From positions 76,508,001-76,572,000 of the forward strand of contig NC_092349.1 in the NCBI RefSeq assembly GCF_963676685.1: a stretch of 64,000 nt of DNA, given 5' to 3'. The stretch comes from Mytilus edulis (lineage: Eukaryota). Below are positions 9,201 through 59,500 of this stretch, piece by piece (position 1 is the stretch's first letter; every line of letters starts with the position of its first letter). Made by a program: the position numbers and the translations under genes. The notes below the pieces were generated by a model, which worked only from the letters and a program-made list of their open reading frames with translations, was not told the origin of the DNA and did no database searches.

Positions 9201-10291
9201 TTCACAATTTACTTTTAAGAAAATGCATCATATAGTGAACACAAATATTGAAGTCATTAAAATGCCAAATTCACATAATTAAAAAAATATACTTAATATC
9301 TTTTTCCATTGTCCATATATATACAGTTAATATTTTTCTTCAAATTCTTAAATTCAAAATTGATATTTTTTCTTGAAAAACATATAATTAATACTTTTGT
9401 TTATAATTCAACTTGGTTTTTGAATAGATAAATCCAGAGGCTAGAGCACTAGAATTTCTACCCCATGAACCAGTAGATGTGGCAAAGATGGACTATTCAG
9501 AGGCAATACAGGACTTAACAATTCCTACTAAGGCTAAGTATTTTAAAGATAAGTATGTATGTTTAATTGATAATGAAGAGGACATAGTTGATAAATTTAT
9601 GGCTAGCCTATCATTCAGTTCAGATGATGTTAAGCTGATATCAAGAGCAACTCAGGGCCAGAGTAGCAACAACTTATGGTTCACTATGAGGAAAGGTTTA
9701 ATTACTGCTTCTAACTTTCAGGCTATAATGAATAATGAGGACCCAGATCATATTTGCAGCCGAATTATAGGTAGTGAATCACTTTCTGTAAAGAATAAAT
9801 TCCAAGAATTGGCCTTAGACTGGGGTAGACGCAAGGAATCAAAAGCCAGGAACCTATACCAAACAGCTCATGGTTTGAAAAGGAATAAATGTATAACTGA
9901 AACTGGTTTGGTGGTAAATCCGAAGTATCCATGTATAGGTTGTAGTCCAGATGGAGTGATCACATGTAAATGCCATGAGAGTAAAGTTATTGAAATTAAG
10001 TGTCCGTTTTCACTAAGAAATAAATCTGCTAAATCTGTATTACACATGAAAACTAATTCTGATGGTTATATTGATTTTTCTTCACAGTATTATTGTCAAG
10101 TGCAAGGACAAATGGGAATTATGGAGATGAAAAAGTGTGATTTGGTATTCTACACCAAACATGGAATAGAACATGTAGAAGTCAATTTTGATGAAGAATT
10201 TTTTAACAGAATGCTGGTGAAACTGCAAAACTTCTTTACAGATTATATTGCACCATTTCTTCTAGAAATAGTGAGTAAAGAGAACTTATAA
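3273..10291 (+). CDS. ISL2EU accessory protein: SAP-like N-terminus, SWIM zinc finger, YqaJ/lambda-exonuclease domain (~564 aa, 5 exons)
   Basis: Exons 3273-3502, 5315-5638, 7030-7185, 7954-8074, 9428-10291; all GT..AG, phases compatible, 1695 nt with no stop. SWIM CECPGGADGACRH spans the exon 2/3 junction. YqaJ motifs TQGQS..LWF..RKGLITAS, WG...E, GL.V....P.IGCSPDG, IEIKCP, YYCQVQGQM. Confidence 0.88.
4077..4235. mobile_element. MITE with TAG termini and ~10-bp TSD (AcademH- or Mutator-like)
   Basis: TAGTCCAAATAAT...ATTATTTGGACTA; flanks GGTCATACCC (4067-4076) / GGCCATACCC (4236-4245). A related copy lies at 18061-18226. Confidence 0.65.
4505..4797. mobile_element. MITE with poly-G/poly-C subterminal tracts (Harbinger-like)
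   Basis: TIR GGCAGCAACCATTT / AAATGGTTGCTGCC; inner inverted GGGGCTATGG / CCATAGCCCC; flanks TAA / TAT. Confidence 0.75.
5021..5235 (-). repeat. Partial copy of the Helentron/HINE-like repeat family
   Basis: Reverse complement matches the start of the 54209-54843 element (CAAGAAT.TGTCC.AAGTACACGGATGCCCC.ACTCGCA.TATCATTTTCCATGTTCAATGGACC). Confidence 0.75.
6704..6837. repeat. Long hairpin (41-bp perfect outer arms), probable end of a non-autonomous element
   Basis: TATATCATGCTTACAAGGGGTATTTGCCAAAAATACCGGTT (6704-6744) and its exact reverse complement (6797-6837); imperfect inner stem and GC-rich loop. Confidence 0.9.
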
Positions 10292-13052: not shown

Positions 13053-16000
13053 TTACTTCACAAGTTTAGACCGCAAGTTACACAAAGCACCACATACAAA
13101 AATAATATCATCAAGGATGGGTTTAAGAGTAAGAGGCAATGTGCCCTGTAGTAGCTGAAATGATTTGATATCACCTATAGCTCGTTCTACATGGATGCGT
13201 GCATTTGCAATACGCCTAGTCCTTGTAACTGCTCTACTGCTCAACTGTCTGCCATTTGCAAAAGGTGGAATTGCAAGAGTTGCACCCTTTAAAGCCAGGA
13301 GATCACTTATGGTGAATCCACGGTCAGCCATAACCTCATCGCCAAACTCCAACATTTCCAAGAACCCAGATGCTTGTGTAATCCTGCGGTCTGAAACTGC
13401 CCCTGACCACAACTTTGACAAGAAACAGAATGAACCACTTGGTGTTATACCTACCAAAAGTTTGAATGTATTATTATGCTTATAACTTGACCAAGTGATT
13501 CTCTGGGCAGAAGGTAATGAGGGTTTTTGAACAAAAAATTCAGTGCAATCTATAACTACTCTGGTTTTAGGGAAATACTTAAAACATTTAGGCATATTTT
13601 CCTTTATTTGATCTTTAGTGGGCCACTTGATAAGAAAATCCAGTTCTTTCCGTAAAAACACAATCCATGTGGAAAAGATACGGGAAACAGTTGAAGAACT
13701 TATACACAACATATCTCCCAAGACATCTGTGTCCAATCCCTTCCTCAGTCGTACAAGGCTCATCAAGTACTCCTCCCAAAGTGATAACTCCCTCAATGCT
13801 CCCCTTTTCTGTAAAACAAAATCCAAGAAAAGACTACTATTGAGATTTGTCAATTTTGTTGATTTTTTTATTGTTTATTACTTATTTTTTCTGATTTTCA
13901 TCATTTTTCTGGCTTATGAGATTTACCGTGTTAAAGCCAGGAGCAAAATATCTATTAAACATATCAAGTAAAGCATTCTGAATAATACTCTTTAAAGCCT
14001 AACTGACATTTTCAAAATTACATGTACTATTTTCTGGAACAATTACCCACAAACTTAAATTAATCATGACATATGAGAAGAACTTTTGTTTGTTTCCATA
14101 GAAATTTCTGTACAAAAGATGAATTTATTTTAATAATAGTAGGGTATGTTTACACGAGTTCTGCTCATGACTTGGCATAAAGATACACATGACATTTTTT
14201 AAAAACAAATTGTAGTGTTCAGTAAACCCTGACAACTGTTACTTTTCATCCTTGGTAAAATAAAAATAAAAAGTAATAATGAATATAATATTTGGTTGAT
14301 TTGATCACAATTGCATATTACCATCTAATCAGTAATAACAAAAATAAGTTTTTACAAAATCATTATGCCAAGTCGCTAGGGGGCGCTGTTCCAACAGTGT
14401 ATCCACTAATAAAACCAGTGGACGTTGTAAACAATGCTTGATATAAAGACTTTGATGCTAACAAGAAATATTTATTGTTACATTTTTCATGTTTTTACAG
14501 GTATCAATGGAGACCTTGTAGCAGGACATAAATTAATGAAGAGACACGTTTTTGAGAAATGACCATGTGTTGATTTTTAATATAAAGTATTAACACTGGC
14601 TATTGCTTGAATAAGTGCTCAAAATCCATCAAAAAGAACAGATCTGTCTGAGGAAATCTTACTATTTATGTTGAGTATTTGAATAAAATATAGGTAAGGT
14701 TTTAACTAAAGTGAATTATGAGACAGATAACTTACCTTTCCACTGACATCATTCTCTGTATCGTCGAAGCTGTCATCAACCCTAGATGACCCATACCAAT
14801 ACTTCATCCTAGAAGCCTTCAACTCGACATGACTAAAAACAAGTTTCAAGACATCCAGTGTCATTCCTGAAAATTTAACAATGAGGCTGTTAAAACTGAT
14901 AATGTGTTATTTTATCGATCTTAATTTTGCATCTACTTTCAATTACCGGTGAGTTAATCCTTTTTTTTTTTAAATCACTAAAACATATCCCAAAAATCTG
15001 CATACATTGAATAGACCAATATGTTATGATTAAAAATAATATTCCATGCTTTCATTCCAATCTTATTCTTATGATAAGGTCAGGGGGACCTTTTAAATAC
15101 CTGTATAGGCTTTAGGCTTCTTTTCCACATCTGAAACAAATAACTGTCTTCTCATGGTCTTCAAGTTGACATTGGTACTGCTGTCAGAATAAGTTGGATG
15201 GTAAGTCTGAGATCCTGAATCTGCAATTTAAGTTCAAATATAAATGCATGTATAACACTTTTTTCTCTATGCAACCCTACATGTATATTTGAATTTTGAA
15301 AGACTTTTATTTGGGGTTTTCTTCACTTTCTTGTCCAAAACCAAATGAAGCAAGAAAATCAAGTCATAGTCAAATAAACGCTGCCAATATTGAGACAATA
15401 ATCATGATAATTATTGGTTAAAAAAACATTTTTCCAAATTTTTACGCCCCCCGCTGTAGCATATAGTGGCATTAAGTTTTACACTTTTCTGTTGGTTTCC
15501 TTTCTGTTAACTTGAGTTTTATTCAACAAAACATTATGAAACTTATACAAATGCTATTTACCATGTTTATCACTGAACAAGGAATAAGTTGAATTTTGAT
15601 GGTTACTTAAAAACTATTGCAGAGTTTAATTTTGCCCCTTTACTAATGAAAAATTACATTATGCAAATAGATCAAAGTAAAAAATCTGAAAATAACAATT
15701 GAAAGTGATTGTTATTTCACTAATTCAGTGAAAAACTAAACAATCTCAAAAGTAAACGTTTTGTTTCGAAGTACATTTTTGTAAATTGTGGCTAGACAAA
15801 TTCACTGCAATAAGGAACATTCTAATATACATGTAAGACACTTTAATATATTAAGATTATGATATCCAGATATAAAACAGTGCTGTACTACTTCATTGAT
15901 TGCCAAGGTTAACAGGGGCAGAATTAGAGGATTTTTCAGCCCCCCACCTTTTGATGAAAAAATTTGGTTGATTAAATATATACGGAATCACTGAAGCATG

Positions 16001-19000
16001 TATGAAGCGGCTACTTTTTACGAAAATTTCTGGATCTGTCATTGCTTGATGTATAAACTTCACACCTTCCCGCATAACCTCCAGCCCATTTAGAAATATA
16101 GAGCTCCCATGTCATCATAAATATATATAAATTTACCTTTTGTTTCCACAGGTAGAGGAGTAGCAGTAAAGATAGTGGTGTCAATGTCATCTGGTACTTT
16201 CCCTTCGTCGCTAGGCCTTAGTTCAATCTCTGCTTCAAAATCTAAAATTATTTAATGAAATATGTTATATCTATTATAAATCAACAGAATTATCTGCCCT
16301 TTATATTTTAACTGGTTTTATATTTTGAAATACAAACTTAATGCTTTTTTATACTTTAATGTAAAAATTTGAAGTTTTAGATTATTTTGTTATATACTGC
16401 AAGTTATTTTATGTACTTGGGAAAATAATTTCTATTCATAGCAAAAAACAAAAAAATCTGCAACGTGCCCAACACAGATGCTCAGAAAGAATATCCATTT
16501 AATTATAATTATCAGCCAGATAAATATTCTATAGAGAACGTGTCAAGAAAAAGAAAAAATACAACATTTCATGCATTCGTTTATCTGGATCTCACCTACC
16601 TAAATACTAAAAATATTTACAGATTTTTACCATTCTGATATAATTTAATTTTGGATGTAAAGCGTCCACTGATTGGCTGACGTCCTTTTGTTTATCAGCC
16701 CATAGACATAATTTTGTCATGTGGCTGTGATGTCATCAATGTTTTTTCATGGTTTAATCCCGTTTAAAATGAAATTTCAAATTAAATTATAAGAAATAAT
16801 TGAAATTTTTTTTCTAACTATTCAAAATAAAATAAAAAATGTGGTGCACACTGTAAAATGGCCCGTTGTGAGAAAAAATACTACAGTTACTCCTTAATTG
16901 TTCAAAAATAGTCACATTTTAAACTAAATTTTACAAGGTTGAGCCTAAACGGTGGGTAAAATATGACACTGACCTTTAATTTATCATGTTTATTTTTTAC
17001 ATTGTGTAATGTCAACTTATGCACTTACTTCATGATGTTGTATAAGATTTGCGAAATTGTACATTTTTATGATCATTTTATTAAAAAAAATGTGATTTGG
17101 AAAATTTTAAATGCATACATGTATTTACATGTAAGCAATATAAAAAATAAAATCAAAATAATTGAAATTATGACACATTTGTTGTTGTCATGGTTGTTGT
17201 TTAAGATAAAATAAAATAATGAACATATTTCAACAAATTAAATGATTTAAAAAGGAAACTAATGTGCAGACAATTTTAATGTGTTTTCGGACATTGATAA
17301 TATATTAATTGTAGCCTTTGCTATGTTTGAAGGAGGTCAATAATTTACATTTTAAGATGTATTGACTGAGGATAACAATTTTCTAAAGATACAGTAACAT
17401 GTTTTAAAAGATCTTACCTGGAACATGAACTATACAGTAAGAATGATCTAGGTCTACTGTTCCCTGATCAGCTGATTTTCCTAAAATAATGAAATGCTTT
17501 ATTATATGAAACATTACACATTTATACAAAAAATTACAGTTTATCAATTTGATAGACATTGTTTTAACTTCACCCAATACATGTAACTACATGTAATATC
17601 TGACATGAAAATAGGGAAATGTTGTGGATTTAAATATGTTCACAACAGTCTTTACTCTTAGCCACTTGTCTGAAGACGCAGACCAGTATAAATAATTAAT
17701 CAGACTAGTTAGTTGTTGTTTATTTAGAAACATATGTAAAATGTGGGAATATTGGTCTTTGGACTAGATCAGTAGGATTTTGATGCAGACTGCACCACAT
17801 GCATAAGATATTAATAACACAATACTGTACATGTAAATGTACATGTCATGCATATATTTTCTGTTTGTGAATACTATATTTGGACAGACTGGTAGCCGTA
17901 GGTACTGTACATATAAATGTATCTCAATGTCAGTTTTATTTGTGTATGTCTTTGAGCACGTTGAACTGCCTTTAGCATTAGTAACACCAAATTTTGTGAT
18001 TAAGCATTGTGACATTACAGTGGTCATTTTTTAAGTCTGCAGCTACATGTACACAAATGTTAGTCCAAATAATTATGACGTCTCGAAAGGCTTTTATATT
18101 TTTTTGACGCAATAATTATGAGGTCTTGAAATGCTATTATATTTTTTTCTTTGAGTAAGGTGTCAAAGAACAAAAAAAATAGCCTTTCTAGACAGCCTTT
18201 TGAAGACATCATAATTATTTGGCCTACACAAATTATGCTATTTCAGTCAGGCCTAAATTAAATATTGTTTGTTTCCCCAATCCCGACCCTGCAAAGCCAG
18301 GTGTGGGTAGGTACATTTGTAGGTTGGAAAAAAAATTTATTTTTCCATAAGCTTGAACAATATTGGACGGATCCGGCAAGCCTGAAAATTTGAAATTAAT
18401 AGAATAATATTTGACTTAGTTTTGACAATAAAATTTTATGAGCTGCACCAATTTTGCAGGGTTTGTCAGGATTTGGGAAACAAACAATATTTAATTTTAG
18501 GCCTCAATATTCATTGGCATAACAGCCTTGTACTTACAAATTGATGTTTTTATAAGTTTGTAGTTTGAACAGTTCAATGTATGAAATATGAAACTGTTTT
18601 TGGATAGCTCCTACATAATTTCACACAATATTTTTTAGTATCATGAGTTCATAAACATGTATAAATGCAGCACCTGCATGTTCAAGTAAAAAGTGCCATT
18701 GGGATATATGTCAATCATGTCAAATTTTAAACAAAGTAATATTTAAACATAATGAACCTTTATATCGAAAATACAAGCATTGTATTACATTATATATACA
18801 TTTCGTACCAGGTTTTTTCACCTTCCTACACACAAGGCTTGGACGGTCTATTGGTGCCCTTCTTTTCCGGTTCTGCAGCATGAAATTTTCCTTCTCAGCT
18901 TCACAGGCGCCTGCAGGAATAGGATCGGGATATTCCTCAGTCGGACCGTTCCCCCTTACAAAGTGCAGTGAGCAGATGTAGCTATATTTCGTCACTTTTT

Positions 19001-19166
19001 CAACGTTCAGGTCAGGTCGTCCGCAGGCTCTTATCCATCTTTCACACTTCACTCTATTCCGTAATGGCTTTGGGAACGGAATAAAGTGCACATCCTTCTC
19101 CGCGAGTCTCTCTGGGTACCTACTGTCACTCTTACAAACCCCGTACATGCAATTTTTGTTCACCAT
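13053..19166 (-). CDS. THAP-domain Harbinger/ISL2EU DDE transposase (~510 aa, 6 exons)
   Basis: Exons 19166-18809, 17480-17418, 16241-16137, 15220-15101, 14866-14736, 13808-13053; GT..AG, 1533 nt open. THAP (C-x4-C...FP...W...C...ICSLHF...P), DHSY motif, YTG, HTH (LVRLRKGL....LG....IS.STVSRIF..W), catalytic IDCTE / MADRGF / RIHVER. Confidence 0.9.
18061..18226. mobile_element. MITE, same family as 4077-4235
   Basis: TAGTCCAAATAATTATGACGTCT / AGACATCATAATTATTTGGCCTA; flanks CACAAATGT / CACAAATTA. Confidence 0.6.
18250..18503. mobile_element. Harbinger-like MITE, 3-bp TCA TSD
   Basis: TIR GGCCTAAATTAAATATTGTTTGTTTCCC / GGGAAACAAACAATATTTAATTTTAGGCC; TCA at 18247-18249 and 18504-18506. Confidence 0.8.
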
Positions 19167-19314
19167 AGTCAATCGGAAATGTGTTTGTTTACCCTGGTTA
19201 CAATGGCGGATTTGGAAATTCTGCCCGCCTTTTGGTACAGTCAATATAGATTTCGAAATTCCGAAGTTACATACTTCCGGTATGACTAATCACCAAACAA
19301 TGTGCAAGTGGTCT

Positions 19315-22300
19315 ATTAAAATTGAAAAAAGTTAATATAGGGCTTTAATTGATTCCGGGGCAAGTTGCTCTTTATTACATAAAAGAGTTTATCAAGCTAT
19401 GAAAAGTCTACCTTAGTTAATTAAAAGTAAAGTATCTCTTCAAGCGGTAAACAGTGTTCTTATTAGTAGAAGGTAGCGATTTGTAAATTGGGTGATCAAA
19501 AATAAATCATGTTTTTCATGTAGTGTCGGATATGAATAGAAATATAATTCTGGAAAGAGATTTTCTACAACAACAAGGCGTGCGTGTCTATTTTGACTTA
19601 AACTGTATAAGAATTGGAAAAGTTTACGTGCCTCTTCAAAATGACATCCATATTGCCTCAATAGTAAGAGTTGCTAAGAGGACACTTTTAAAACCTCAAA
19701 GTGTAAAAAAGATCAAGAAACATTCATGTTTTCTAAACTCTGAATTGTTACAAGTATCTGCCGTGGATTCGGGCTATATAAATTCGGAAGCAGGATTATT
19801 AGTAAGTAACTCAGTTACTTAAATACATAATATTCCTGTTTTAATGTTAAACAACACCAATAAAACTATTTGTTTAAATAGGGGATGTGTAGTAGGAAAA
19901 GTCAGTGACATCAATACAAATGACGTTTCATGTGTAACAAAAGATGGTCAAACAATTGAGTCAATCGATACATCAAATCAGAAAATTGATGTTCCTCAAG
20001 ATTATCTAGAAGTTGTAAGATCTCTTGTAAATGCAAATGAGGACATATTCGCTAATAGTGACAAAGATTTAGGGGGGAATGACACTGTTAAAATGTTTAT
20101 TGATACGGGATATCATCACCCTATTAAATTAAAACCGTATAGAACTCCTATACATAAAAGGCCAATAGTTGATAAAGCAATTGATGAAATGCCGGAAGCA
20201 AATATTATAAGAAGGTCAAGATCACCATGGTCATTTCCGATTGTCGTTGTTGATGAAAAGGATGGATCTAAACGATTTTGTATTGATTTCCGTTTATTGA
20301 ACCGTATAACGAAAGTTATCCCTTATCCTTTACCATTTCAATGATAGACGATATTTTGGCACAATTAAATAAAGCAAGGTATTGTACAAGTTTGGACTTA
20401 AAGAGTGGGTACTGGCAAATAAACATGACAGAAAGTGACAAAGAAAAGACTGCATTCACTACTTGTCACAGGGGTCTTTTTGAATTTAATGCTATGCCTT
20501 TTGGACTTGTAAACGCGCCTAGTATTTTTAGCCAGCTCATATCTATTGCAATGCAAGGATTATACCAATTTTCGGTTGCCTATTTTCTGAAACATTTGAA
20601 AACCATTTACGTCACATTCAGACAGTGTTTGATAGGTTGAGACAACATAATCTGAAATTAAAAGTAAAGAAATGTAGTTTTATTAAAGAAGAAACTAAAT
20701 ATTTGGGTTTTGTTATAACGCGTGAAGGTGTTAGACCAGATCAAGATAAAGTAAAAGCTATTCAGACAATTCCGATACCCAAAACTGTGAAAGAAGTTAG
20801 AGGATTTATTGGTATGTGTAGTTACTACAGAAGATTCATTCCGAATTTTTATAAAAAAGCGGAACCTCGTGTCAATTTTACGAGAAAATATTCGAAATAT
20901 CATTGGTCAGAGGGTTTTGACGTAGGCTTTAATTACTTAAAAGATATTTTAACAGTGAAACCTCTAATTGCATATCCAAACCCTCTAATTTGCCTTATGT
21001 CTTGTACACTGATACAAGTGATACATGTGTTAACTAGTGCATGCTTGACACAGATATTACCAATGTCATTTCAACTGATCGGGCGGAGCTTACGTTTTAA
21101 TTTGCATAAGGACAGTCTATTTGAAGATGTGTGTGATTAGGATGATTGCAGTTATAATTATTACTGATTTCTAATCACCTATCAGTGCCATCAAAGGAAT
21201 TTACAAAAGAAAAACTGGACACTTCATTGATGAGTTTATCCTAAAACACCTATCTATAGATGGAATGGTTTATTATGAGCGAAACGGTAAACTCCACCCA
21301 GTCAAGTGAAATAAATTGAGTAATAACTGAAGAAGAAAATGCAGTTGAAAAACCTATTTAATTTCTATAGCATAAATTAAGCTAGACTCAAACTCTGGGG
21401 TTAACTGTTGAAAAAGAAGCGTTTACGATTCATTATGCACTCCAGAAATTAGATTTTTATTTCCACGGAGCAAATTTTATCATCAAAACGGATCATAAAC
21501 CTTTGAAATATTTACTAGATTCTCCAATGAAAAACAGAGAGCTACAAATGTGGTCTTTAGGGATATATATATCTGGATATAATTGTAAGATTGAGTACAT
21601 AGCAGGAGAAACAAACTATTTTGCAGATCTTTTGTCAAGAACTCCGCAAAGTGATGACGATAAGGGAATAAGTAATGAAACTGTCGATCCCGATATAAAT
21701 GATAACACCTATGAAATTAATACAATTAATTCAAATAAATTAAACACAAGAAATTTTGCTACTTGCACTGTAGAACAACCGGATTTACCTAGTAAGGAGA
21801 CTTATCAAAATGAAGATTTAAATATGAAATTAGAACAAGCAAAAGATTTGAACATTGTTAAGGTTAAAAGGAAAATTGAAACAGGTACAGCGGGAAGCTC
21901 TACACAAAGTCAATTCGTGATTATTGAAGATGTTGTTTATTTTCTGTCACAGCCTCATATTGATCCTCTAATCCGATTATATGTTTCAGAACATTTAAGG
22001 GAAGATATTGTCGTTCAATATCATGATAATAATGGTCATTTAGGTATTGATAAAACATATGACAGTATAAAGCTACGGTATTACTGGCCAGGGTTATACA
22101 AGAAGATATATGCTTATGTCACCATGTGTGTTACATGTCAAACTAGAAATTTAAGAAAAGTAAATCCTCCTGTTCAAGAAGTAGATACATCACCTTATCC
22201 GTTTGCTAAAATAGCATTAGATTTATCAGGAAAATATCCAGAAACATTGTCTGGGAATAAATATATCATTGGCTTCATTGCTCTTTATTTAATTCGGGAT

Positions 22301-23419
22301 TCCCTGAAGCTTTTGCAGTAAAAGATAAAAAAAAAAAAAAAAAGCCGAAACAATTGCTCATTTGCTTATCGAGGAAATAATTCCAAGACATTCAGTCCCA
22401 TTACAAATTTTAATGATAACAGATCTGAAAATGTGAATAAAATTATGAAGAAAACATGCGAAACTCTGAATATAAATCATATTACTACTTCGTTTTACCA
22501 TCTGCAAAGTAACGGACGAATTGAAAGGTTCCATCGTACTCTCCATGATGTTTTATCTAAACTAATGAAAGACAACACATCAATGTGGGATTTGTTTTTA
22601 AATCAAGCTTTGACCGCTATTAGGTTAAACATAAGTGAGTCTTCTAAATTTTCACCGTTCTATTTGTTATACACTCGAGATGCCGTTCTTCCCATTGATA
22701 ACATAATGAAACCTAGCTCATAGGAAATATATTGTCGAAGACTTGCATCAAATAATGCCAAATCAACAACATAAATCATTCGTGCTGGTACATAGGTCCA
22801 TAAAACAAGTTCAAATGCGCCAGTTAAAATATAAATAAAAACTGTTTAGATGAAGGTTTTAAGATAGGGGATCCTGTTTATTGTAAAAATCACTTGAAGA
22901 AAAATAAATTAGATAATCGATGGACACCGTATTTCCGTATTGTTGACCAAACCTCGGCAGTGTCATTCGTGATCCAGGTCAATTGACTGGAGGTACGAAA
23001 AGCACATCTGCGAATAGCTAAAATCGATGAGTGGGTATTCCTTAAATAAGGATAAACAATTAAGAAAAGCTGCGTATGTTGCATCTCCTGATGTCAGTAG
23101 TTCAGACATGGAGGTTGACACTGACTCGGATTCTGATTTTAATAAAAAAAAAACTCTTGCTACTCTTGCAAAGAAATATCGAAAAAACGAACAAATAGTT
23201 CTGATGAAGAATCAATTCTTCTTATAGAGTAAACCCTTAAAAGAAAAAGAAAGAGAGGAAAATTATGACAGTGATTCAGAGGAATCAATGTCTGTAAAGG
23301 AGATTATCGAGACAAATCTGAAAACGAGAAAAGTTAGGCAAACATTGCCGTCACATATAGGTAAAGATAAAAATGTTAAAGTAAAAAAATTGTTGGCGTC
23401 AATTTCTAACATGTTGTAA
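19315..23419 (+). pseudogene. Decayed Gypsy/Ty3 pol (protease, RT, RNase H, integrase)
   Basis: ALIDSGAS protease (~19340); SRSPWSFPIVVV.KDGSKRFCIDFR, LDLKSGYWQI, MPFGLVNAP (RT); VRGFIGMCSYYRRFI; TDHKPLKYL (RNase H); H-x4-H...CVTCQ and SNGRIERFHRTL (integrase). Many stops and frameshifts. The protease N-terminus lies at ~3069-3118, on the far side of the ISL2EU element. Confidence 0.93.
21058..21322. mobile_element. 265-bp MITE inserted in Gypsy RNase H
   Basis: Imperfect ~40-bp TIRs (TACCAATGTCATTTCAACTGATCGGGCGGAGCTTAC / GTAAACTCCACCCAGTCAAGTGAAATAAATTGAGTA); flanks ATAT / ATAA; removal restores CLTQ-ITEEENAVEKPI. Confidence 0.75.
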
Positions 23420-24160
23420 GGCTTCACAATAAGTTGATATTGATTGCACGGGATTGTAAATTGTACACAAATAAATGACTTGTTTATTGCTTTTAAAGAA
23501 TTGTATGTTGATTTAAAAAAATTCACTAGAGCTGTTAAAGAAAGAATTTTTCAAATTGAGAGACATGTTAGGATAAATTCGATAACTGAAGGACCATCAC
23601 GTCTTGTAACGCAGGATCAATTTTGTTTTTCTTACCTACAAATGCAGCTGAATATACTGTCGTTAGGTCATTTGCCATCAAGCGTGATGTCTCCGAGAAA
23701 AAAAAAATAACAAAACTGTTAATTGGGATTAATATAAAATTGCCACCAGGCATAATGCCACCGAGTGATCCAATTACTAAATTATGGGATTACTATCAAA
23801 TCTTAAGCTTTCACACCGTGTTGGATTATTATCGTATAATCGTTGTTTTGTCGGTACCATTGATAGATTATAACAGTAATTTTGATATTTTAAAACCATT
23901 TAATTTACTTATTCCGATAAACTTAAATCCGCAAGTGGGCAGTACAAAGTCCATGCTAGCGTTCTATAATCTTGAAGCCAAGGCGTTAGGTGTAAATGCT
24001 AAATATATTCTTCTAAATTATGATGAACTAAATAAATGTATTCATTCGATAAGAAATTTTTGTGACACAAGAAGTCCAGTCTATCGAATAAATCTAAGTA
24101 AATTTTGTAAAGTTGCTCTTTTTTTACCTTGTAAACATCAAAGGAATGCTAATCCAATTC

Positions 24161-24243
24161 CATCATCAGGTGGGGTCCTCCTTCCTTGGCTGTTTCGGCG
24201 CTATTCCACAACAACCTCCAGAGGTGCGCCGGCTCAGGTGATC
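24161..24243 (-). ncRNA. Candidate rearranged (non-circularly permuted) hammerhead ribozyme, copy 1
   Basis: Minus strand: GGCGC..CCUCU..GGUUGU-U-GUGG..GCGCC-GAAA-CAGCC..GGAGG..CCAC-CUGAUGA. Stem III GGUUGU/ACAGCC, stem I GUGG/CCAC, stem II GGCGC/GCGCC. Confidence 0.55.
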
Positions 24244-24375
24244 AATCTGAACCTGGAACTGGATGGCCTACACGGCTCCGATGTCTCAGCTGATGTCATT
24301 GCTGTTCTTCTGTAACTGAATGCTGTTCTGTATATCTAAATCTGTCCATTATCTACACAATAAATGTTCATTGTT

Positions 24376-27300
24376 CTAACACTTTGTACTTTTCCACACT
24401 TCGTCTCTTTTCCTCCAAATCCACTGTGATGCCACTTCTGCTTCTCTACACACTTCTGTAATCAGTTTCTTCCTCTCTGCTCCTATTACTCCCAAGGTCC
24501 TAAGTGTCCGCCACATTGACTGTCCTGCAAAGCCCCTGCATCCGACTTCTATTGCCAAACACCACGTCCTCCATCCCCGCTGTTTGCAATCCTCTACTAG
24601 CTGCTGGTATTTTGCCATCTTTCTTTCATAAGCTTCCTCTATTCTGTCTTCCCATGGGACTGTCAGTTCCAGCAAGACCGCCTGCCTAGTTCCCTGTGAC
24701 CAAATGACTATATCTGGTCTTAGCGATGCTGCTGCTATTTCTGCTGGGAAACTCATGCGTTGATGTATGTCTGCTGTCATCTGCCAGTCTGATGCTGTTC
24801 CAAGTATCCCTAAACCTTCTGCCTGGTTGTCTTTCTTTTCTCCAGCCCTCACAAAATTTACAAATGTGATGTTCTTCTGCATCTTTCTCTTCTTTCTCCT
24901 GGTGGTATCCAACTTTGCTGCTATTGTTTTCAATACACTGTCATGCCTCCATGTATATCTTCCATCTTTCAATGCGACTGGACATGCTGACAACACATGC
25001 TGTAGAGATGCTGGTTTGTCTTTGCATAAGGTGCACGTTGGGTCTTCTATCAACCCCCAGGTATAGAGGTTTGATGGGCTTGGTAAAACATCATACACTG
25101 ATCTTAGTAGAAAACTCAATCTGTATCCCTCCATACTCCAAATCTCGCTCCAGGTCAAAGCCCTGCTTCTCGCTCCTTGCCAATTCAACCAACTACCCTG
25201 CTGTTTCATTCCTACTGCCTTAACATTCCTACTCTCTTCTTCCATCTGTCGTATTTCCTGTTGCACCAGTTCCCTCCGTCCCTTCTCATTTGCTGTATCC
25301 CACCTTGGTTTTGTTGTCATACCAAATCCCTGTCTACCAACTGCTGTTACACCAACGATGACACTGTGCTTTAGTCTAGTCTCAGCTTCCTTAACTGCTT
25401 CGTCTGCTTTCCATTTTCTTCCTGTCCTGATCTTTACTTTGGCTCCTCTCACTTTAGCATCTTTGCTGTCTCTCAACGTCATAACCTGTCTTGTCTTTGT
25501 AACTTTATACTCTTCTGTCAATGCCTTCATTGGTAATTGTAGCTTTGTTCCTGTGCTGTACAATCCAATGCTGCTGAAACTTCTTGGCACACCCAACCAT
25601 CTTCTTAGGCATGCACTGATCTTTCTCTCTAAGGCCTCAACTTTGGACAATGGGAACTCGTAAACTAGTAATGGCCACAATATCCTTGGTAAGACCCCAT
25701 GTTGATATATCCAGGCCTTATATCTTCCTGGGAGCCCACTTTTGTCTATCTTCGTCAGCCATTCTACCAATTGCACTTGAACTTCACCCATGTTTACCAT
25801 ATCTGCTAGTGTTGCATCAAACTTTTTACCTAGGCATTTCACTGGTTTCTCTCCAACTGTTGGTATCTTTTCACCTGCTAACTCAAATGTCTCATCTTGC
25901 ACTTTGCCTTTCCTCACTATCAAACTTCTAGATTTACTTGGTTTGAACTTCATCCTGGCCCACTTAATCATCCTTTCCAATTCCTCTAAAGTCCATCTTC
26001 CCTCTATGACTGTTTTTGCTGTCACTGTCATATCATCCATAAAAGCTCTTACTGGTGGTTGTTCGACCCCTGATGACAATAATGGTCCTCTACTTGGTTT
26101 TTCTACTGATTTTACAATCAAGTTCATTGCTGCTGCAAACAGGACTACTGATACTGTACACCCCGTTAGTATTCCAACCTCAAGTCTCTGCCAAGCTGTG
26201 GTGAAGTCTCCAGCTGTGAACCTCATTTCAATCTTGTCAAAATACTCTCGCAGCATAGTTCTGATAGTTGGTGGAACATGATACCTCTCCAATGTCAGGT
26301 CTACTAGTTTGTGAGGTATGGACCCATAAGCATTAGCCAGATCTAGCCAAAACACTGCTAAGTCACTTTTCTTCTCCTTTGCTTCTCTTAAAATCTGTGT
26401 AATAACGCTGGTGTGTTCGATGCAACCAGATACTTCAGGCATGCCTCCTTTCTGGACTGCGATGTCTATATATTCGTTGCCAAGCAGGTACCTCGTCGTT
26501 CTCCTTGCGAAAACTGCCAGGAATATCTTCCCCTCAATGTTCAATAGGGAGATGGTTCTAAACTGTTCAACTTTCCTGGAGTTCTCTTCTTTTGGTATAA
26601 AACATCCTTCTGCCTTGTACCATGACTCTGTCATCTTTCTCCTTCTCCAAATTACTTTTAATAGCTTCCACAACCTTCTGATCAGTCTGGGACAGTTCTT
26701 ATATACCCTATATGAAATACCATTTGGTCCTGCATGGTGCTGACCCTGCTCTTGCCTTTCTCACTACGTCCTGCACTTCTTGGAACTTCAGGTCTGACTC
26801 ATCAAACTGTTCTTTTGGCTCCTCTGGTGTTAACAATTTCTCACATTCTTCCAGGTCTTCTCCTCGTCTCTCATTACTGTGGGTCTTCCTGAGATGTTCT
26901 TCCACTTCTTCCCTCGAGTTTTCCAGTTTGCCAGATCCTCTCGCTCCAAATAATCGCTTCATATACTGAAATGGGTTTGTTGTTAATGTTGTTCTCTCCT
27001 TTGCCTTTTTCTTTCTATCTCTTCTATGCGTTTCTGCTCTTGTAAGTGTTTTAAGTTTCTCCCTAGTTTCCTTTCTTAACTGCTGTAATGGTAACCTTTC
27101 ATTCTCATTGGCGACTTTGTACCTCTTCTTTAACCTTCTCAGGTCTCCTCTCAATTCCTTGATCTTCTGTCTCCGGTTACTATGGCCTAGTTTTGTTGGT
27201 TGTTTCCCTTGTGGTACCACTCCAAATCTGTCCTTTCCTACGCTGTAAATAATGGACGTCATTGCTGTTATCTTTCTGTCTACACTGCCTGCTAATGTTG

Positions 27301-27907
27301 CCTCTAAGATGTTTTCCAAATCGTCGTCAAGCGCTTTCCAAGCTGCTTTGTCTGCATTCGTTGGCCATTTGATCTTCTCTTTGCGTGGCTCATTCTCTTC
27401 TCTACGGGTTGTTGGTTCTATCCCGTCTTCTTTACGGACTGTTGTTTCTATCCCGTCTTCTCTATGGACTGTTGGTTCTATCCTCTCTATCTCTTCTGCC
27501 TCGTCAAGTTGTTCTACCTCTGTAGGCTGTTCCTCGTGCTCATCCTCACCCTGGGTCACAGGGAGGCTATCATCACTGTGGTTTGCTTCCTGGATGGTCT
27601 CCTCCTCCGTCTGACCAGATCTCTCTGTGCGTTGATTGCCAGAATGGGGTTGCACACATTTCATTCTACTTTGATGGATCTTCAAACCTCTAGAATTCTT
27701 ACAGACTTTACCACAAAAACATTTACATCCGTTGTTCTGGTTCGTTGTCCTTGTCGGTTCCATAGTCGTTTCCTGGTCCTGTCCTATGGGCTGTTCATCC
27801 TCCCTCGCTCTCGCACAGCCCCGAGGGTGTCTTAGTATATATCGTTCCATAGCGTGTAAAATGGGTTCCCCTTCACAGGAGATGCACTTTGACTTGCCAA
27901 GCCTCAT
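24376..27907 (-). pseudogene. RT-RLE polyprotein with one frameshift
   Basis: CFCGKVCKNSRGLKIHQSRMKC finger; FRTISLLN, WLDLANAYGSIPH, GILTGCTVS, AFMDD; CTLC...LQHVLSAC, WRHDSVL, RPDIVIW, LLELTVPWE, K..KY, IEVGCRG. A TGCA insertion at 26731-26734 breaks SAP-GPNGISYRVYK. Start codon uncertain (27907 or 27850). Confidence 0.9.
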
Positions 27908-28018
27908 GCCCCGGTTACCAGTCTCTCCTGGCTGCCTCCTGTCTCTCCAGGTTGCCACTGTTCTCTTCACAGTCGTCAACCAGACTTTCCTGGTGGTCAC
28001 TGGGTTTCCAGAAGTTGA

Positions 28019-29122
28019 TTACCTTGTAAACATCAAAGGAATGCTAATCCAATTCCATCATCAGGTGGGGTCCTCCTTCCTTGGCTGTTTCGGCGCTATT
28101 CCACAACAACCTCCAGAGGTGCGCCGGCTCAGGTGATCAATCTGAACCTGGAACTGGATGGCCTACACGGCTCCGATGTCTCAGCTGATGTCATTGCTGT
28201 TCTTCTGTAACTGAATGCTGTTCTGTATATCTAAATCTGTCCATTATCTACACAATAAATGTTCATTGTTCTAACACTTTGTACTTTTCCACACTTCGTC
28301 TCTTTTCCTCCAAATCCACTGTGATGCCACTTCTGCTTCTCTACACACTTCTGTAATCAGTTTCTTCCTCTCTGCTCCTACTACTCCCAAGGTCCTAAGT
28401 GCCCGCCACATTGACTGTCCTGCAAAGCCCCTGCATCCGACTTCTATTGCCAAACACCACGTCCTCCATCCCCGCTGTTTGCAATCCTCTACTAGCTGCT
28501 GGTATTTTGCCATCTTTCTTTCATAAGCTTCCTCTATTCTGTCTTCCCATGGGACTGTCAGTTCCAGCAAGACCGCTTGCCTAGTTCCCTGTGACCAAAT
28601 GACTATATCTGGTCTTAGCGATGTTGCTGCTATTTCTGCTGGGAAACTCATGCGTTGATGTATGTCTGCTGTCATCTGCCAGTCTGATGCTGTTCCAAGT
28701 ATCCCTAAACCTTCTGCCTGGTTGTCTTTCTTTTCTCCAGCCCTCACAAAATTTACAAATGTGATGTTCTTCTGCATCTTTCTCTTCTTTCTCCTGGTGG
28801 TATCCAACTTTGCTGCTATTGTTTTCAATACACTGTCATGCCTCCATGTATATCTTCCATCTTTCAATGCGACTGGACATGCTGACAACACATGCTGTAG
28901 AGATGCTGGTTTGTCTTTGCATAAGGTGCACGTTGGGTCTTCTATCAACCCCCATGTATAGAGGTTTGATGGGCTTGGTAAAACATCATACACTGATCTT
29001 AGTAGAAAACTCAATCTGTATCCCTCCATACTCCAAATCTCGCTCAAGGTCAAAGCCCTGCTTCTCGCTCCTTGCCAATTCAACCAACTACCCTGCTGTT
29101 TCATTCCTACTGCCTTAACATT
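28019..29122 (-). mobile_element. 5'-truncated second copy of the same non-LTR element, directly upstream in tandem
   Basis: Near-identical to 24124-25227 (offset 3895; only a few substitutions, e.g. AAAS/AATS, RTL/RAL, W/L); ORF 28271..29104. Confidence 0.95.
28056..28138 (-). ncRNA. Candidate rearranged hammerhead ribozyme, copy 2 (upstream of the full-length element)
   Basis: Same sequence as 24161-24243. Confidence 0.55.
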
Positions 29123-29170: not shown

Positions 29171-30579
29171 TACCGCAGTCCCTCTAGGCCACGATCGCAC
29201 TACGATCTGTGAAAAAACTGCAAATTTTGATGATCGTAGTACGATCGTGTAGATCGTAGTAAGGTCGTATCACGGTCGTACGTGGTGAGGTCTTCAAGAT
29301 CGTAATGAGCGTGGCCTACTTTGGACATGTTCAAAACAATCGTGGTGCGGTCTCGGCGAAATCGTGTCGTAGTAGAAGCGTAGTGAGAGCGTACTAAGGT
29401 CGCTGTGCCAACGTAGCGAAAGCGTGATTCTATTCGGAGAGACTGCGCTACGACCTCACTACGACCATCACGTTCTCACCGCGACCCAACTACGCTTACA
29501 CTACGACTATACCACGTTTACAACACGCTGTTCAAGACCATAGGACGATTCTAGCACGCCCTTGCCGTCCTCATCACGCTCTTCTTGCAACCTGACTACG
29601 TTCATATTACGACCATCATTCTCATGGTCATTTTCACATAAAATATATTAAATCTCTCCAGGTTTGTTTGTTTGTATGTAATTAGGACTTCTTGTCCATC
29701 TTCTCTAACGGCTCAACCATGCTTCTCGTTTTTATATAGATTAGACCGTTGAATTTCCCGTTTGAATGGTTTTACACACCTAATTTTTGGGGCCCTTTAT
29801 AGCTTGCTGTTCGGTGTGAGCCAAGGTTACGTGTTGAAGGCCGTACCTTGGCCTATAATGGTTTACTTTTATAAATTGTTACTTGGATGGAGAGGCGTCT
29901 CATTGGCACTCATACCACACATTCCTATATCTATTGACACATTTGTCTGCTATCGTTCACTACAATATCGTCATTTGAGCTTTATGGACCACCAATAGGT
30001 TGTAATTTAGATTCGATTGGTCGGTCCGACATCTCTTGATCGGGGTTCGTTTCTATCAGAGCTCCATCTGCCTCTACATCAAACCCGGCCTGCCACCTCT
30101 CCCACGTGTTCTAGTAGATTTTGGTGGCATGTCTGTATTGTTTCTACGAATCTACGTATTAATCAGAGATAGAAGGAATGGAACTATATTGATATGGAAC
30201 ACGATGTTGGCGTTATTGCTGAAAACATAGTAAGATCGCGGTATGAACGTAGTATATTCGTGGTAAGAACGTGCTATAATCGCAGTAGAAGCGTGGTAAG
30301 ATCGTGCTGCAATCGGATAACTCGTGGTATAATCGTACTGAGAACGTGATGAGCGTAGAAAGATCTTGATAAGCGTAGTGAGGTCGCAGAATAAGCGCAG
30401 TTAGAACGTGGTATAGTCGTAACAGGATCGTTGTAGGAGCGTAATGAGGACGTAGTAGCATCGTGTAAACAACGGAAATTTACATTTTCATGACGCTCAT
30501 ACCGTGACCTAACGACGATCTGAATTTATTTTAGATCGCGGTGAGCGTGGTGCGATCGTGGTAAAGTGTGTATTGGGCT
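29171..30579. mobile_element. Non-autonomous Harbinger-like element (TAA TSD) with CpG-rich subterminal repeats
   Basis: Imperfect TIRs around CCACGATCGCAC.ACG / CGTGGTGCGATCGTGG; TAA at 29168-29170 and 30580-30582; removal restores env frame CHTTI-KINTILPM; many ACGATC/GATCGT motifs; carries a dispersed repeat at 29742-29933. Confidence 0.82.
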
Positions 30580-47577: not shown

Positions 47578-48960
47578 GATATAACACGAACCAACATGAC
47601 AACACGCAAGGATATAAGACGAACCAACATGGCAACATGCAAGGGTATAACACGAACCAACATGACAACATGCAAGGATATAACACGAACGAACATGACG
47701 ACATGCAAGGATATAAGATGAACCAACATAACAACATGCAAGAATATAAGACGAACCAACATGACAACACGCAAGTATATAAGACGAATCAACATGGCAA
47801 CATGCAAGGATATAAGACGAACCAACATGACAACATGCAAGGATATAACACGAACCAACATGACAACATGCAAGAATATAACACAAACCAACATGAAGAC
47901 ATGCAAGGATATAACACGAACGAACATGACGACATACAAGGATATAACACGAACCAACATGACAACATGCAAGGATATAAGACGAACCAACATGACAACA
48001 TGCAAGGATATAACACGAACCAACATGACAACATGCAAGGATATAAGACGAACCAACATGACAACATGCAAGGATGTAACACGAACCAACATGACAACAT
48101 GCAAGGATATAACACGAACCAACATGACAAAATGCAAGAATATAACACGAACCAACATGACGACATGCAAGGATATAACACGAACGAACATGACGACATA
48201 CAAGGATATAACACGAACCAACATGACAACATGCAAGGATATAAGACGAACCAACATGACGAATGCAAGGATGTAACACGAACCAACATGACAACATGCA
48301 AGGATATAACACGAACCAACATGAAAATATGCAAGGATATAACACGAACCAAAATGACGACATGCAAGGATATAACACGAACCAACATGACAATATGCAA
48401 GGATATAACACGAACCAAAATGACGACATGCAAGGATATAACACGAACCAACATGACAATATGCAAGGATATAACACGAACCAACATGACAATATGCAAG
48501 GATATAACACGAACCAACATGACAACATGCAAGGATATAAGACGAACCAACATGACAACATGTAAGGATATAAGACGAACCAACATGACAATATGCAAGG
48601 ATATAACACGAACCAACATGACAATATGCAAGGATATAACACGAACCAACATGACGACATGCAAGGATATAACACGAACCAACATGACAACATGCAAGGA
48701 TATAACACGAACCAACATGACAATATGCAAGGATATATAACACGAACCAACATGACAACATGCAAGGATATAACACGAACCAACATGACAACATGCAAGG
48801 ATATAACACGAACCAACATGACAACATGCAAGGATATAACACGAACCAACATGACAACATGCAAGGATGTAACACGAACCAACATGACAATATGCAAGGA
48901 TATAACACGAACCAGCATGACAACATGCAAAGATATAAGAACCAACATGACAACATGCAA
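47578..48960. repeat. 33-bp minisatellite, ~42 copies
   Basis: Consensus GGATATAACACGAACCAACATGACAACATGCAA; small indels near 48261 and 48735. Confidence 0.97.
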
Positions 48961-56582: not shown

Positions 56583-59500
56583 TGAAATGACGTATAAATG
56601 CAGTGTCTTGTACCTCCTTAATTTGTCTTTGAAACAATTTATTTCCACAGAAATCGCCATTTTTTTTAGAAAATAACCCAATTCGGAAGCCGTTATCGAT
56701 CCGTGGCTTATACGCTTTCGCGCATACTCAGTCGACGTACTGCCCTCGAAATTTAAAATCACTTTGTATCAACACTTGCCCCATTGTACCGCAATTTCGC
56801 GGGCATCGTCTAGTAAATATAAATGAGAAGGAAGTATCTATGGAACAGTTGATTCTTCAATATATAATACATTGAGTTCAATGAACTTCAAATCATTTGT
56901 TCTATCAATTGTATGTAACAACATGGTTTTCTTTTATTTGTTTGAATACGACTTCAATAATTAGTATGTACATTTATTGTAAGACATACCTTTATTACAA
57001 CAAGACCCCTTGTTTATAGTTCCAACATGTAATCCGTTAGCCGTACCAGTTCCATTTTGAACGTTTGAGGTCATGTTGTTTGAACCTGTATTCGAAGTTG
57101 ATACTGATGTACTATTTGAACTTCCCTTCATATTTCCATGTGAAGAATTTCCAGACATATGATTTGAAGAATTTCCAGACATATGATTTGAAGAATTTCC
57201 AGACATATGATTCGAAGAATTTCCAGACATATAATTTGAAGAATTTCCAGACATATGATTTGGAGAATGAGTAGAATATCCAAAAGCACTGTGTCCACTT
57301 GAGTTATTATTTGAGCTATTTGAATTTGGTACAATAGTTGTATTGCTAGATGATACCGATGGCGTAGAGTATGATGCGTTTGTCCCTCCGATTAAAACTG
57401 TGCTGTTGTGACTTCCTGATATCGTTGTAATGTTGGAACCAGGAACGAAGGGCTTCGTGGCAGATGTTGTCAAGGCGTTAGTGGTAGGGGCGTTTGATGA
57501 GGTTGATATTACAGTTGATGTTGATGCTAAGTGTGTAGTTGATGATATGGTTGTTGATGGTACGGTTATCGTTGTTGGTACAGTTGAAGTTGTTGACATT
57601 CCAACCATTGCTGTAAAAATTTAATTTATCTATGATTGAACACACCATTAGGCGGTAGAGTTTTAGGAAAACAACATAGTTTTGTCAAATTTAAAATATA
57701 ATCTATTGGAAAATTAAACAAGATGTGAAATACTATAAAAGATTGTTGAACATTTATATTGTGAATATATAGTGATATTTATCTTTTTATGATGATGGGT
57801 TTCAATTGTCTTCTTAGTTTAAATAAGAAGTTATTATTCCATTAAATGATTTTGATAGAAATATAATCCTAATCTTACTTAACTGTAACAGCTACCTCTG
57901 ACGTTAATTTTATTGGTTTAATAATTAGATTCTATATATTTTTATAAAAGCCAACAGCTTGCTAATCAAGATACTGTCAGTTTTGAATGCACATAGCAAA
58001 ATGATATACAAATATATTTTTATTTATAGTAATTGATATAAAATATATATGCAAGACTCAAATCTATGGTGGGTTCCAAATATATGGCAGATTCCTAATC
58101 TATGGCGTCATGCAATCTCAAATCTATGGCAGATTTTGTACAACCTAATCTATGGCAGATTTGTTACGACCTAATCTATGGCAAGTTTTGTAATTTTCTA
58201 ATCTATGGCGGATTTATTTTGTTTCCAAATCTATGGTAAAGTTTGTGTTAATAGAAAACAATGCAATACATTTTCGACTAATGATGGGCTTAAGCAAGTG
58301 GAAATATATGGGAGCATGTCTATAAACATTTGTGAAATAAACATTTCATAATGTTCAACCAAAACAAAAATCCCGTTATACTATATAAAAAACTAAGTAT
58401 TTTATTATCCCAGGAATAGATTACCTTAGCCGTATTTAACCAAACTTTTTGAAATTTTGGGTCATTAATGCTCTTCAACTTAGTTCTTGTTTGGCTTAAA
58501 AACTATTTTGATCTGAGCGTCACTGATGAGTCTTATGTAGACGAAACGCGCGTGACGCGTCTGGCATATTAAATTATAATCCTGGTACCTTTGATAACTA
58601 TAAATTCATATACCTTAATACAGACTTCAGGATTAAAATGATGTCCCTGTAAAAAGAAAATATCTGTGCAAGGTACCTGTTTAACCCATTCATTAAACCA
58701 ACTAATAAGTTCTTTAACAAACAAGCAGGCAGCTTTTTAAACAAAAAAATATAATAAAAAAGTACCAAATAAAAATGAACAGTTTAGATTTTCAAATAAT
58801 ATTTATTTCAGCAATATCGTTAACACATCTTTTTTAATTAATGACAATTTTATCTTTTACTTTATAAACTGTGCCAGCTGAAGACAGTAAACAGTAATTA
58901 CTAAAACTCTCTTTTTCTAAAATATGTGGTACTAAAAATAGCGGTGCCCTTATTTATCGCGGGCATCGTCCGGTACAGCACATTTTGTCCCTCTTTGGGA
59001 TAATAGGTTACATCTTCCTTTAAACCACCCGCAAATTGTTATCAGTGAAATACCTTCATCTTGAATGGTGATGAAATCAATGGGTTTCGCCATCGTTAGC
59101 GGCGGCGAAGATGTAATATGGCGTTATTCAATTGTGACGTTATATGTTATTTTCCCCTCAGATCTGGCATAGATTTGGAGAAAACATAAATCTGCCATAT
59201 ATTTGAGTTGTTTGGCGTTTGTAACGTCACATTTGCCATGGATTAGGAATCTGCCATATATTTGAAACCCGCCATAGATTTGAGTCCTACATATATTTAT
59301 GTTATATAACATTTGTAAAATTCTTACGCCCAAGAGTAATAGTCTGTCCTGTTAATGTTTCTCCTAGTGAATGTTTCTCTCCCCATACCCAGTAATTAAT
59401 AACATCTCCTTGTTTGGCAGCAACAGGAAAAGTATATTCCCAATGATCACCTAAATATTTGAAGAAGAAAATACAATAAAGAGTAAAATCACAAAAATAC

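Follow-up and report, generated by a model that had tools for sequence, protein, structure and literature searches.

The host element and its setting

The window (the whole 64,000-nt stretch of Mytilus edulis DNA analyzed here) contains a retrotransposon on its minus strand. A full unit of 3895 bp, with its ORF split near 26710-26760, lies downstream of and head-to-tail with a truncated copy; other copies of the element have open frames of 1084-1213 aa. Just behind the ORF, 110-225 nt past its stop, and again 3895 bp upstream, is a domain of six helices that holds a full hammerhead core. The features are as follows.

24376-28018, minus: retrotransposon ORF with RT, CCHC knuckle and RPD..E nuclease motif, in two frames split near 26710-26760
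28019-29122, minus: 5'-truncated upstream copy, head-to-tail with the full unit
24152-24264, minus: whole six-helix hammerhead-like domain, downstream copy, in the order X5'-Y-II5'-Z5'-III/GUH/I-II3'/GAAA/III-Z3'-I/CUGAUGA-X3'
24254-24264, minus: helix X, 5' strand (11 bp), present in the MFE fold; partner 24152-24162
24231-24253, minus: hairpin Y (7 bp), present in the MFE fold; its loop palindrome UGAUCA (24244-24239) is a candidate kissing loop
24226-24230, minus: stem II, 5' strand GGCGC (G10.1 side), detached from CUGAUGA
24220-24224, minus: helix Z, 5' strand CCUCU; partner 24177-24181
24206-24216, minus: block S, GGUUGU-U-GUGG (stem III strand, GUU triplet, stem I strand)
24210/24209, minus: predicted scissile bond of the downstream copy, by analogy with hammerheads
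24188-24201, minus: block G, GCGCC-GAAA-CAGCC (stem II 3' strand, GAAA, stem III strand)
24177-24181, minus: helix Z, 3' strand GGAGG
24163-24173, minus: stem I strand and CUGAUGA (CCAC-CUGAUGA)
24152-24162, minus: helix X, 3' strand, immediately 3' of A9
24124-24151, minus: tail, with which the insertion ends at its 3' side 84-86 nt beyond the predicted cut
28047-28159, minus: identical upstream copy of the domain, predicted cut at 28105/28104
27918-28011, minus: five short hairpins in an array at the unit start, purine-rich in their loops and joined by linkers of the UGAC/UGGC type; contiguous with the tail of the upstream ribozyme

The host is a HERO-like RLE non-LTR retrotransposon. Its single ORF encodes RT, then a CCHC knuckle, then a PD..D/E nuclease, as in RLE-type elements of the R2 group, and the best solved relatives of the protein are R2 structures (profile match, E 4e-41). 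Among named proteins the nearest is one of Mytilus galloprovincialis (96%), and further relatives occur in bivalves, fish and amphioxus. A Tetraodon polyprotein (AAN12398, BAC82599), which we take to be Zebulon/HEROTn of the HERO clade, is 53% identical across the whole 794-aa query. In a quick tree built from the C-terminal part, without outgroups and without the related locus L097, the element also groups near this protein. The flanks in 26 regions are unrelated and A/T-rich, indicating no specific target, and the HERO clade is described as having no specific target site (PMC3636483).

Several other features were noted in the window. Three copies of an in-frame 30-bp repeat (27396-27483, minus) lie within the N-terminal portion of the ORF, on the downstream side of a Cys/His zinc-finger-like motif. 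Beside the upstream copy, dispersed 11/33-bp repeats form two clusters of opposite orientation (29180-30570) and resemble the ends of foldback DNA transposons. A 33-bp repeat is present in 42 copies, with several open frames, at 47578-48960, and remnants of an LTR retrotransposon (RT, RNase H, integrase zinc-finger) lie at 20532-22321 on the plus strand. ORFs at 550-1731, 9428-10291, 13053-13874 and 18720-19289, with zf-C17orf113, YqaJ-like recombinase, DDE_Tnp_4 transposase and THAP domains, are probably DNA-transposon remnants. The plus strand also has a minimal type I hammerhead at 58515-58566, with a 4-bp stem I, a 3-bp stem II, a stem III and a GUC triplet, that falls below Rfam gathering scores; we presume it to be of the kind found in Penelope-like elements.

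A conserved fold behind the ORF

The two copies of the domain are identical in sequence, and the identity extends over 28019-28318. A preliminary description of this DNA had named the three core strands, a GGCGC upstream of them and a CCUCU/GGAGG helix; all are where it had placed them on the minus strand, and the strands read S-G-C, which bears out its statement that their order is not a circular permutation. Helix X, hairpin Y and the second copy were missing from that list of parts. By comparison with Fig. 1C of PMC10085705, helix Z appears to be the equivalent of the helix through which stems I and II of type SGC hammerheads interact. All helices can close inside one 113-nt stretch. The pseudoknotted fold proposed earlier is supported, and the dimeric fold offered as its alternative is unnecessary for building the core.

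A descriptor of the six helices and the core, derived from these same sequences, gives a score of 37 to both window copies, the only two places it finds in the window, and at best 26.5 to 616 approximate shuffles of the window searched on both strands. Applied to 79 related loci (283 kb), which remain from the best 80 of 477 metagenome loci encoding a relative, it finds 35 matches in the sense and none in the antisense orientation, and its maximum in 123 Mb of shuffled loci is 28.5. By itself the window motif is unremarkable in MFE folding (z -1.33) because stems I and II are pseudoknots. The expectation that standard models would miss the fold was confirmed: Rfam gave no relevant match near the motif, across the window or in eight related loci.

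Relatives retain the fold while its helices change in sequence. Among 50 metagenome loci that have the ORF end and at least 130 nt behind it, 46 carry the fold; of the remaining four, one has only its 5' half and three are without it, and Rfam found nothing relevant in these three. By our reading, the genome harbors five or more subfamilies, whose proteins share 42-60% identity with that in the window; each of them retains the fold but builds its helices from different sequences. Four carriers match named proteins from Pecten, Dreissena, Limanda and Rhinichthys at 93-99% identity. The family with the conserved fold occurs in mussels, scallops and fish. Outside this set, IMG/VR contained no protein relative, and 80 of the 86 pattern matches there, when scanned, yielded one weak, badly paired match.

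The covariation analysis that had been suggested as a check was done on 34 of 63 distinct descriptor matches, aligned with MAFFT without structure after near-identical copies and mis-parsed rows were dropped. The strands are conserved, and 88.5% of cells are paired, compared to 61.4% in shuffles and 36-43% in slid registers of the same alignment, figures inflated by relatedness and by a descriptor that itself demands the helices. Double-sided changes occur in 28 of 31 pairs: 3/3 in stem I (97.0% paired), 4/5 in stem II (96.5%), 5/6 in stem III (90.7%) and 6/6 counted pairs in helix X. Matches found by the covariance model alone also keep the pairs, as judged by eye. We regard the conserved structure as real with near certainty.

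Two relatives differ in what they retain. A deep-branching member with 43% protein identity keeps the fold with a loop that lacks a palindrome (L146:2381-2492). In a related element on a closed 3824-nt contig (L140:1150-1660), one of the three loci without the fold, an array-like hairpin stretch is retained; its long non-coding part has no hammerhead fold by the descriptor and no Rfam match, and may hold another ribozyme.

Block C is opened by a four-way junction

The core is wired in an unusual way. In the scheme of Eckert 2023, a hammerhead consists of blocks S, G and C, which are assumed to be uninterruptible, and natural SGC and CSG hammerheads from metatranscriptomes and metagenomes have been validated (PMC10085705). 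The S-G-C order has thus already been published as type SGC (the HRIMA-1 motif and variants). This agrees with the remark in the preliminary description that rearranged hammerheads have been reported, and the order itself is known; a report of the break in Block C was not found in the open-access literature.

This break lies between A9 and G10.1. The strand that follows CUGANGA by 0-2 nt, which would form the canonical SGC stem II, makes at least three pairs with the strand before GAAA in just one of 34 sequences and was ruled out as its partner. The upstream strand makes at least four pairs in 32 of 34, in agreement with the earlier proposal that stem II is supplied from upstream. Because the upstream and not the downstream strand pairs with the strand before GAAA, Block C is opened between A9 and G10.1, and the 5' strand of stem II lies upstream of block S, as read from pairing and covariation. 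No unpaired bases occur at the steps A9-X, X-Y and Y-II in 30 of 34 sequences (the descriptor partly selects for this), and therefore the core, helix X, hairpin Y and stem II form a perfect four-way junction. If the core stacks on stem II and X stacks on Y, then C11.1-G12 would be continuous and A9 would cross over. One extra base at the A9/G10.1 position is tolerated in a viroid hammerhead. In the open-access literature we found neither a hammerhead with such a junction nor a ribozyme described for HERO elements. The new part is the break of Block C by a four-way junction; the ribozyme class was already known.

We also considered whether the upstream CUGAGCC could be a decayed CUGANGA of a type-CSG ribozyme. 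This was rejected: these bases make up the 3' side of hairpin Y, and their sequence varies freely.

The loop of hairpin Y contains a palindrome of at least 6 nt in 29 of 49 rows (about 11% expected by chance) and none in 17, which nevertheless keep the core; the rows are related, so these counts overstate their independence. On different branches of the quick tree the palindrome switches among UGAUCA, UGGCCA, UCAUGA and UGUACA, which suggests loop-loop pairing.

The core nucleotides argue for catalysis

Core positions were scored in 52 distinct metagenome matches, wherever a match covers the position. U4, G5 and A9 are present in 50/50, and A13, A14, A15.1 and U16.1 in 51/51; G8 (49/50), G12 (48/51) and G10.1 and C11.1 (47/51 each) are nearly as constant. 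All four bases occur at N7, and N17 is U in 20, C in 19, A in 11 and G in one, and thus is not G in 50 of 51. CUGANGA, GAAA and NUH are therefore conserved in this set, with N7 free and G avoided at N17. An invariant core with a free N7 and an N17 other than G is the tolerance pattern of working hammerheads. Because the observed conservation matches this pattern, we consider self-cleavage at the predicted site to be very likely. The position proposed earlier, 24210/24209, is supported as the site analogous to that cut in hammerheads.

Copy ends, tandems and RNA

The preliminary description had also proposed that the cut defines the end of the element's transcript. In three sets of scored matches (40, 40 and 42, the first two being the best 40 of about 100 candidates), no genomic copy ends at the predicted cut. 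Inserted copies stop 84-90 nt past it; their last bases are AAGGT followed by a ragged stretch of 0-6 bases identical to the beginning of the next unit. The cut therefore does not define the 3' end of inserted copies, and more likely defines both ends of a unit-length template.

We analyzed 25 independent insertions, drawn from 26 regions and the window after merging one duplicate pair and one split copy. Seven are short, nine start at unit positions 52-387 and nine pass the junction between units. The 5' ends of 18 of the 25 fall within -1380 to +387 of this junction, and none starts at unit positions 388-1620. Eight family-A copies extend as far as the unit start, and every one of them goes on into a partial 3' copy. 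In one of the nine tandem insertions the start lies 5 nt after the cut, and the other eight extend 150-1290 nt past it. Therefore, either cut RNA was re-joined or jumped, or uncut RNA was copied.

Variants within the tandems bear on their source. In three of the nine, both repeats share variants that are absent from other insertions (5, 1 and 1), much as paired LTRs share private variants; gene conversion could be an alternative source of such sharing. At site 3512, two insertions have a variant in common that their downstream repeats carry and their upstream repeats lack, a pattern that fits read-through from a tandem source.

RNA data were limited. Three raw RNA runs gave 0, 94 and 59 reads, which are sparse, of mixed strand and without a pile of molecule ends, and no RNA run is among the sequencing-run holders listed. 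From one small run, tentatively taken to be RNA, the unit assembles as a single closed 3924-nt contig, as tandem DNA would also do.

A model for replication and its rivals

We think it reasonably probable that, as a whole, these observations reflect a self-cleaving hammerhead of new topology that serves the replication of a HERO-like element. In the first step, which is very probable, the tandem G-A pairs of the core would stack on stem II and helix X on hairpin Y, giving a stacked four-way junction that rebuilds the active site even though A9 is not bonded to G10.1, and the RNA would be cut after GUH. In the second step, for which the chances are slightly better than even, a transcript spanning two folds would be cut twice to release a unit of ~3.9 kb. 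The ends of this unit would be the two halves of one ribozyme, able to re-pair through X, II, Z and III and thereby to form a circle, either nicked or ligated. After the cut, these helices still pair the halves by 28 bp in the window copy (summed from helix lengths), which would let a double-cut unit close on itself. Two folds may be brought together by the palindromic loop of Y, a suggestion that we regard as evenly balanced. In the third step, the RT/RLE protein would prime within this continuous template, at a short spacer rich in A/U that separates the ribozyme tail from the hairpin array. Copying about one turn, and sometimes more, would yield a full unit with a partial 3' copy in front of it, and the product would restore a source with two ribozymes.

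On such a template, the ribozyme, tail, priming site and array would form one non-coding block of ~250 nt. The array is conserved in 20 aligned loci, with double-sided changes in 9 of 13 predicted pairs, in hairpins 2 and 3 only. It may bind an element protein or aid cap-independent translation (compare PMC13725137). Double cleavage and ligation into circles has been described for the retrozymes of mussels (PMC7229834).

Some of the same observations could be explained if an active ribozyme, in the style of the HDV-type ribozyme of R2, did no more than trim the 5' end and assist translation; a promoting effect of cleavage on cap-independent translation is described in PMC13725137. The upstream copy would then release the element from a read-through transcript and the downstream copy would stay uncut, for example when bound by the element's protein, and the longer tandems would come from uncut transcripts or from template jumps between paired RNAs. 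Ten of the 25 insertions are indeed 3509-3976 nt long, slightly below the 3981 nt expected of a linear RNA beginning at the cut; contig L088 starts 1 nt after its cut; and the variants at site 3512 agree with such a source. However, eight insertions are longer than 3981 nt, and the junction is uniform in the compared family-A tandem rows, whereas R2 template jumps leave ragged junctions. Both folds in the window are identical in sequence, and silencing one of them selectively requires an extra assumption. We consider trimming as the sole role to be unlikely. Less probable still is a fold that derives from a hammerhead but does not cut, and onto which the RT/RLE protein docks. Its position is that of 3' UTR protein-binding structures, inserts retain the tail beyond the cut, the sparse reads show no ends, and the canonical SGC stem II fails to form (at least three pairs in 1/34). 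Yet stem II does form and covary with the upstream strand, and the conservation pattern is catalytic (G5 and A9 invariant, G8 and G12 nearly so, N7 free and N17 free except for G); docking alone would give no reason for avoiding G at N17.

A third reading places the core between two molecules, or two copies within one transcript, joined through kissing Y loops, so that cutting would be tied to dimer formation. Dimeric cleavage is reported for other hammerheads (PMC7229834), and the loop palindrome (29/49 rows against a chance of ~11%, with a sequence that changes between branches) would suit it. Nonetheless, every helix can be closed within a single 113-nt stretch, and the 17 of 49 rows without a palindrome keep the core, a count that overstates independence among related sequences. 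We regard an obligate dimer as very improbable.

A unit-length or circular template made by the ribozyme is in our judgment the best account of the tandem copies, with a somewhat better than even chance of being correct. More tentatively, and with slightly less than an even chance, we suggest that HERO-like elements in general are autonomous LINE-type elements that replicate through ribozyme-made circular RNA primed internally, which would explain their partial tandems.

Implications

The fold would add a hammerhead architecture beyond the six block orders of the 2023 scheme. We suspect that it was overlooked in common animal retrotransposons because the RefSeq search patterns, as described in PMC10085705, presumed an unbroken Block C. 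If our interpretation is correct, a whole clade of RLE retrotransposons gains a ribozyme, and its head-to-tail copies gain an explanation that can be tested. In the textbook picture, target-primed reverse transcription starts from the RNA 3' end; a circular template primed internally would differ from this, and would possibly be a new replication route for a LINE-type element. Ribozyme engineering could also use the open helix next to the active site as a natural port.

Comparison with known systems

The domain shares its core nucleotides, stems I-III and GUH triplet with hammerhead types I-III. In contrast to their circular C-G-S order and three-way junction without a pseudoknot, the order here is S-G-C, which no circular permutation produces. 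Type SGC, as described in PMC10085705, has in common with this fold the order site-GAAA-CUGANGA, a double-pseudoknot core, a short linker between the stem I and stem II strands, and an extra helix that joins the far sides of stems I and II. In that type the 5' strand of stem II follows CUGANGA, whereas here it lies upstream of block S, with X and Y at the break. The same paper places no type SGC RNA in the genome of a known organism, whereas this fold is found in animal retrotransposons.

R2 elements with a 5' HDV-like ribozyme likewise have a single ORF with RT, CCHC and RLE, and a ribozyme at the unit boundary (as described in PMC3636483 and PMC7650587). Compared to these, the ribozyme here is of the hammerhead rather than the HDV class and lies after the ORF, ~85 nt inward of the insert end; the flanks show no fixed target, and partial copies are arranged head-to-tail. 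Retrozymes and Penelope-like elements with type I hammerheads, present in mussels, also form tandem repeats that contain a hammerhead, and in retrozymes double cleavage gives unit-length RNA whose circles are ligated mainly by RtcB (according to PMC7229834). The retrozymes described there are non-coding and 170-400 nt long, whereas the element here is an autonomous RT/RLE element of 3.9 kb with a different ribozyme topology. The element also resembles, at the protein level, the HERO clade, including the Tetraodon protein (53% identity), a clade for which we found no ribozyme reported in the open-access literature. The tandem layout seen here is, we presume, also that of Zebulon.
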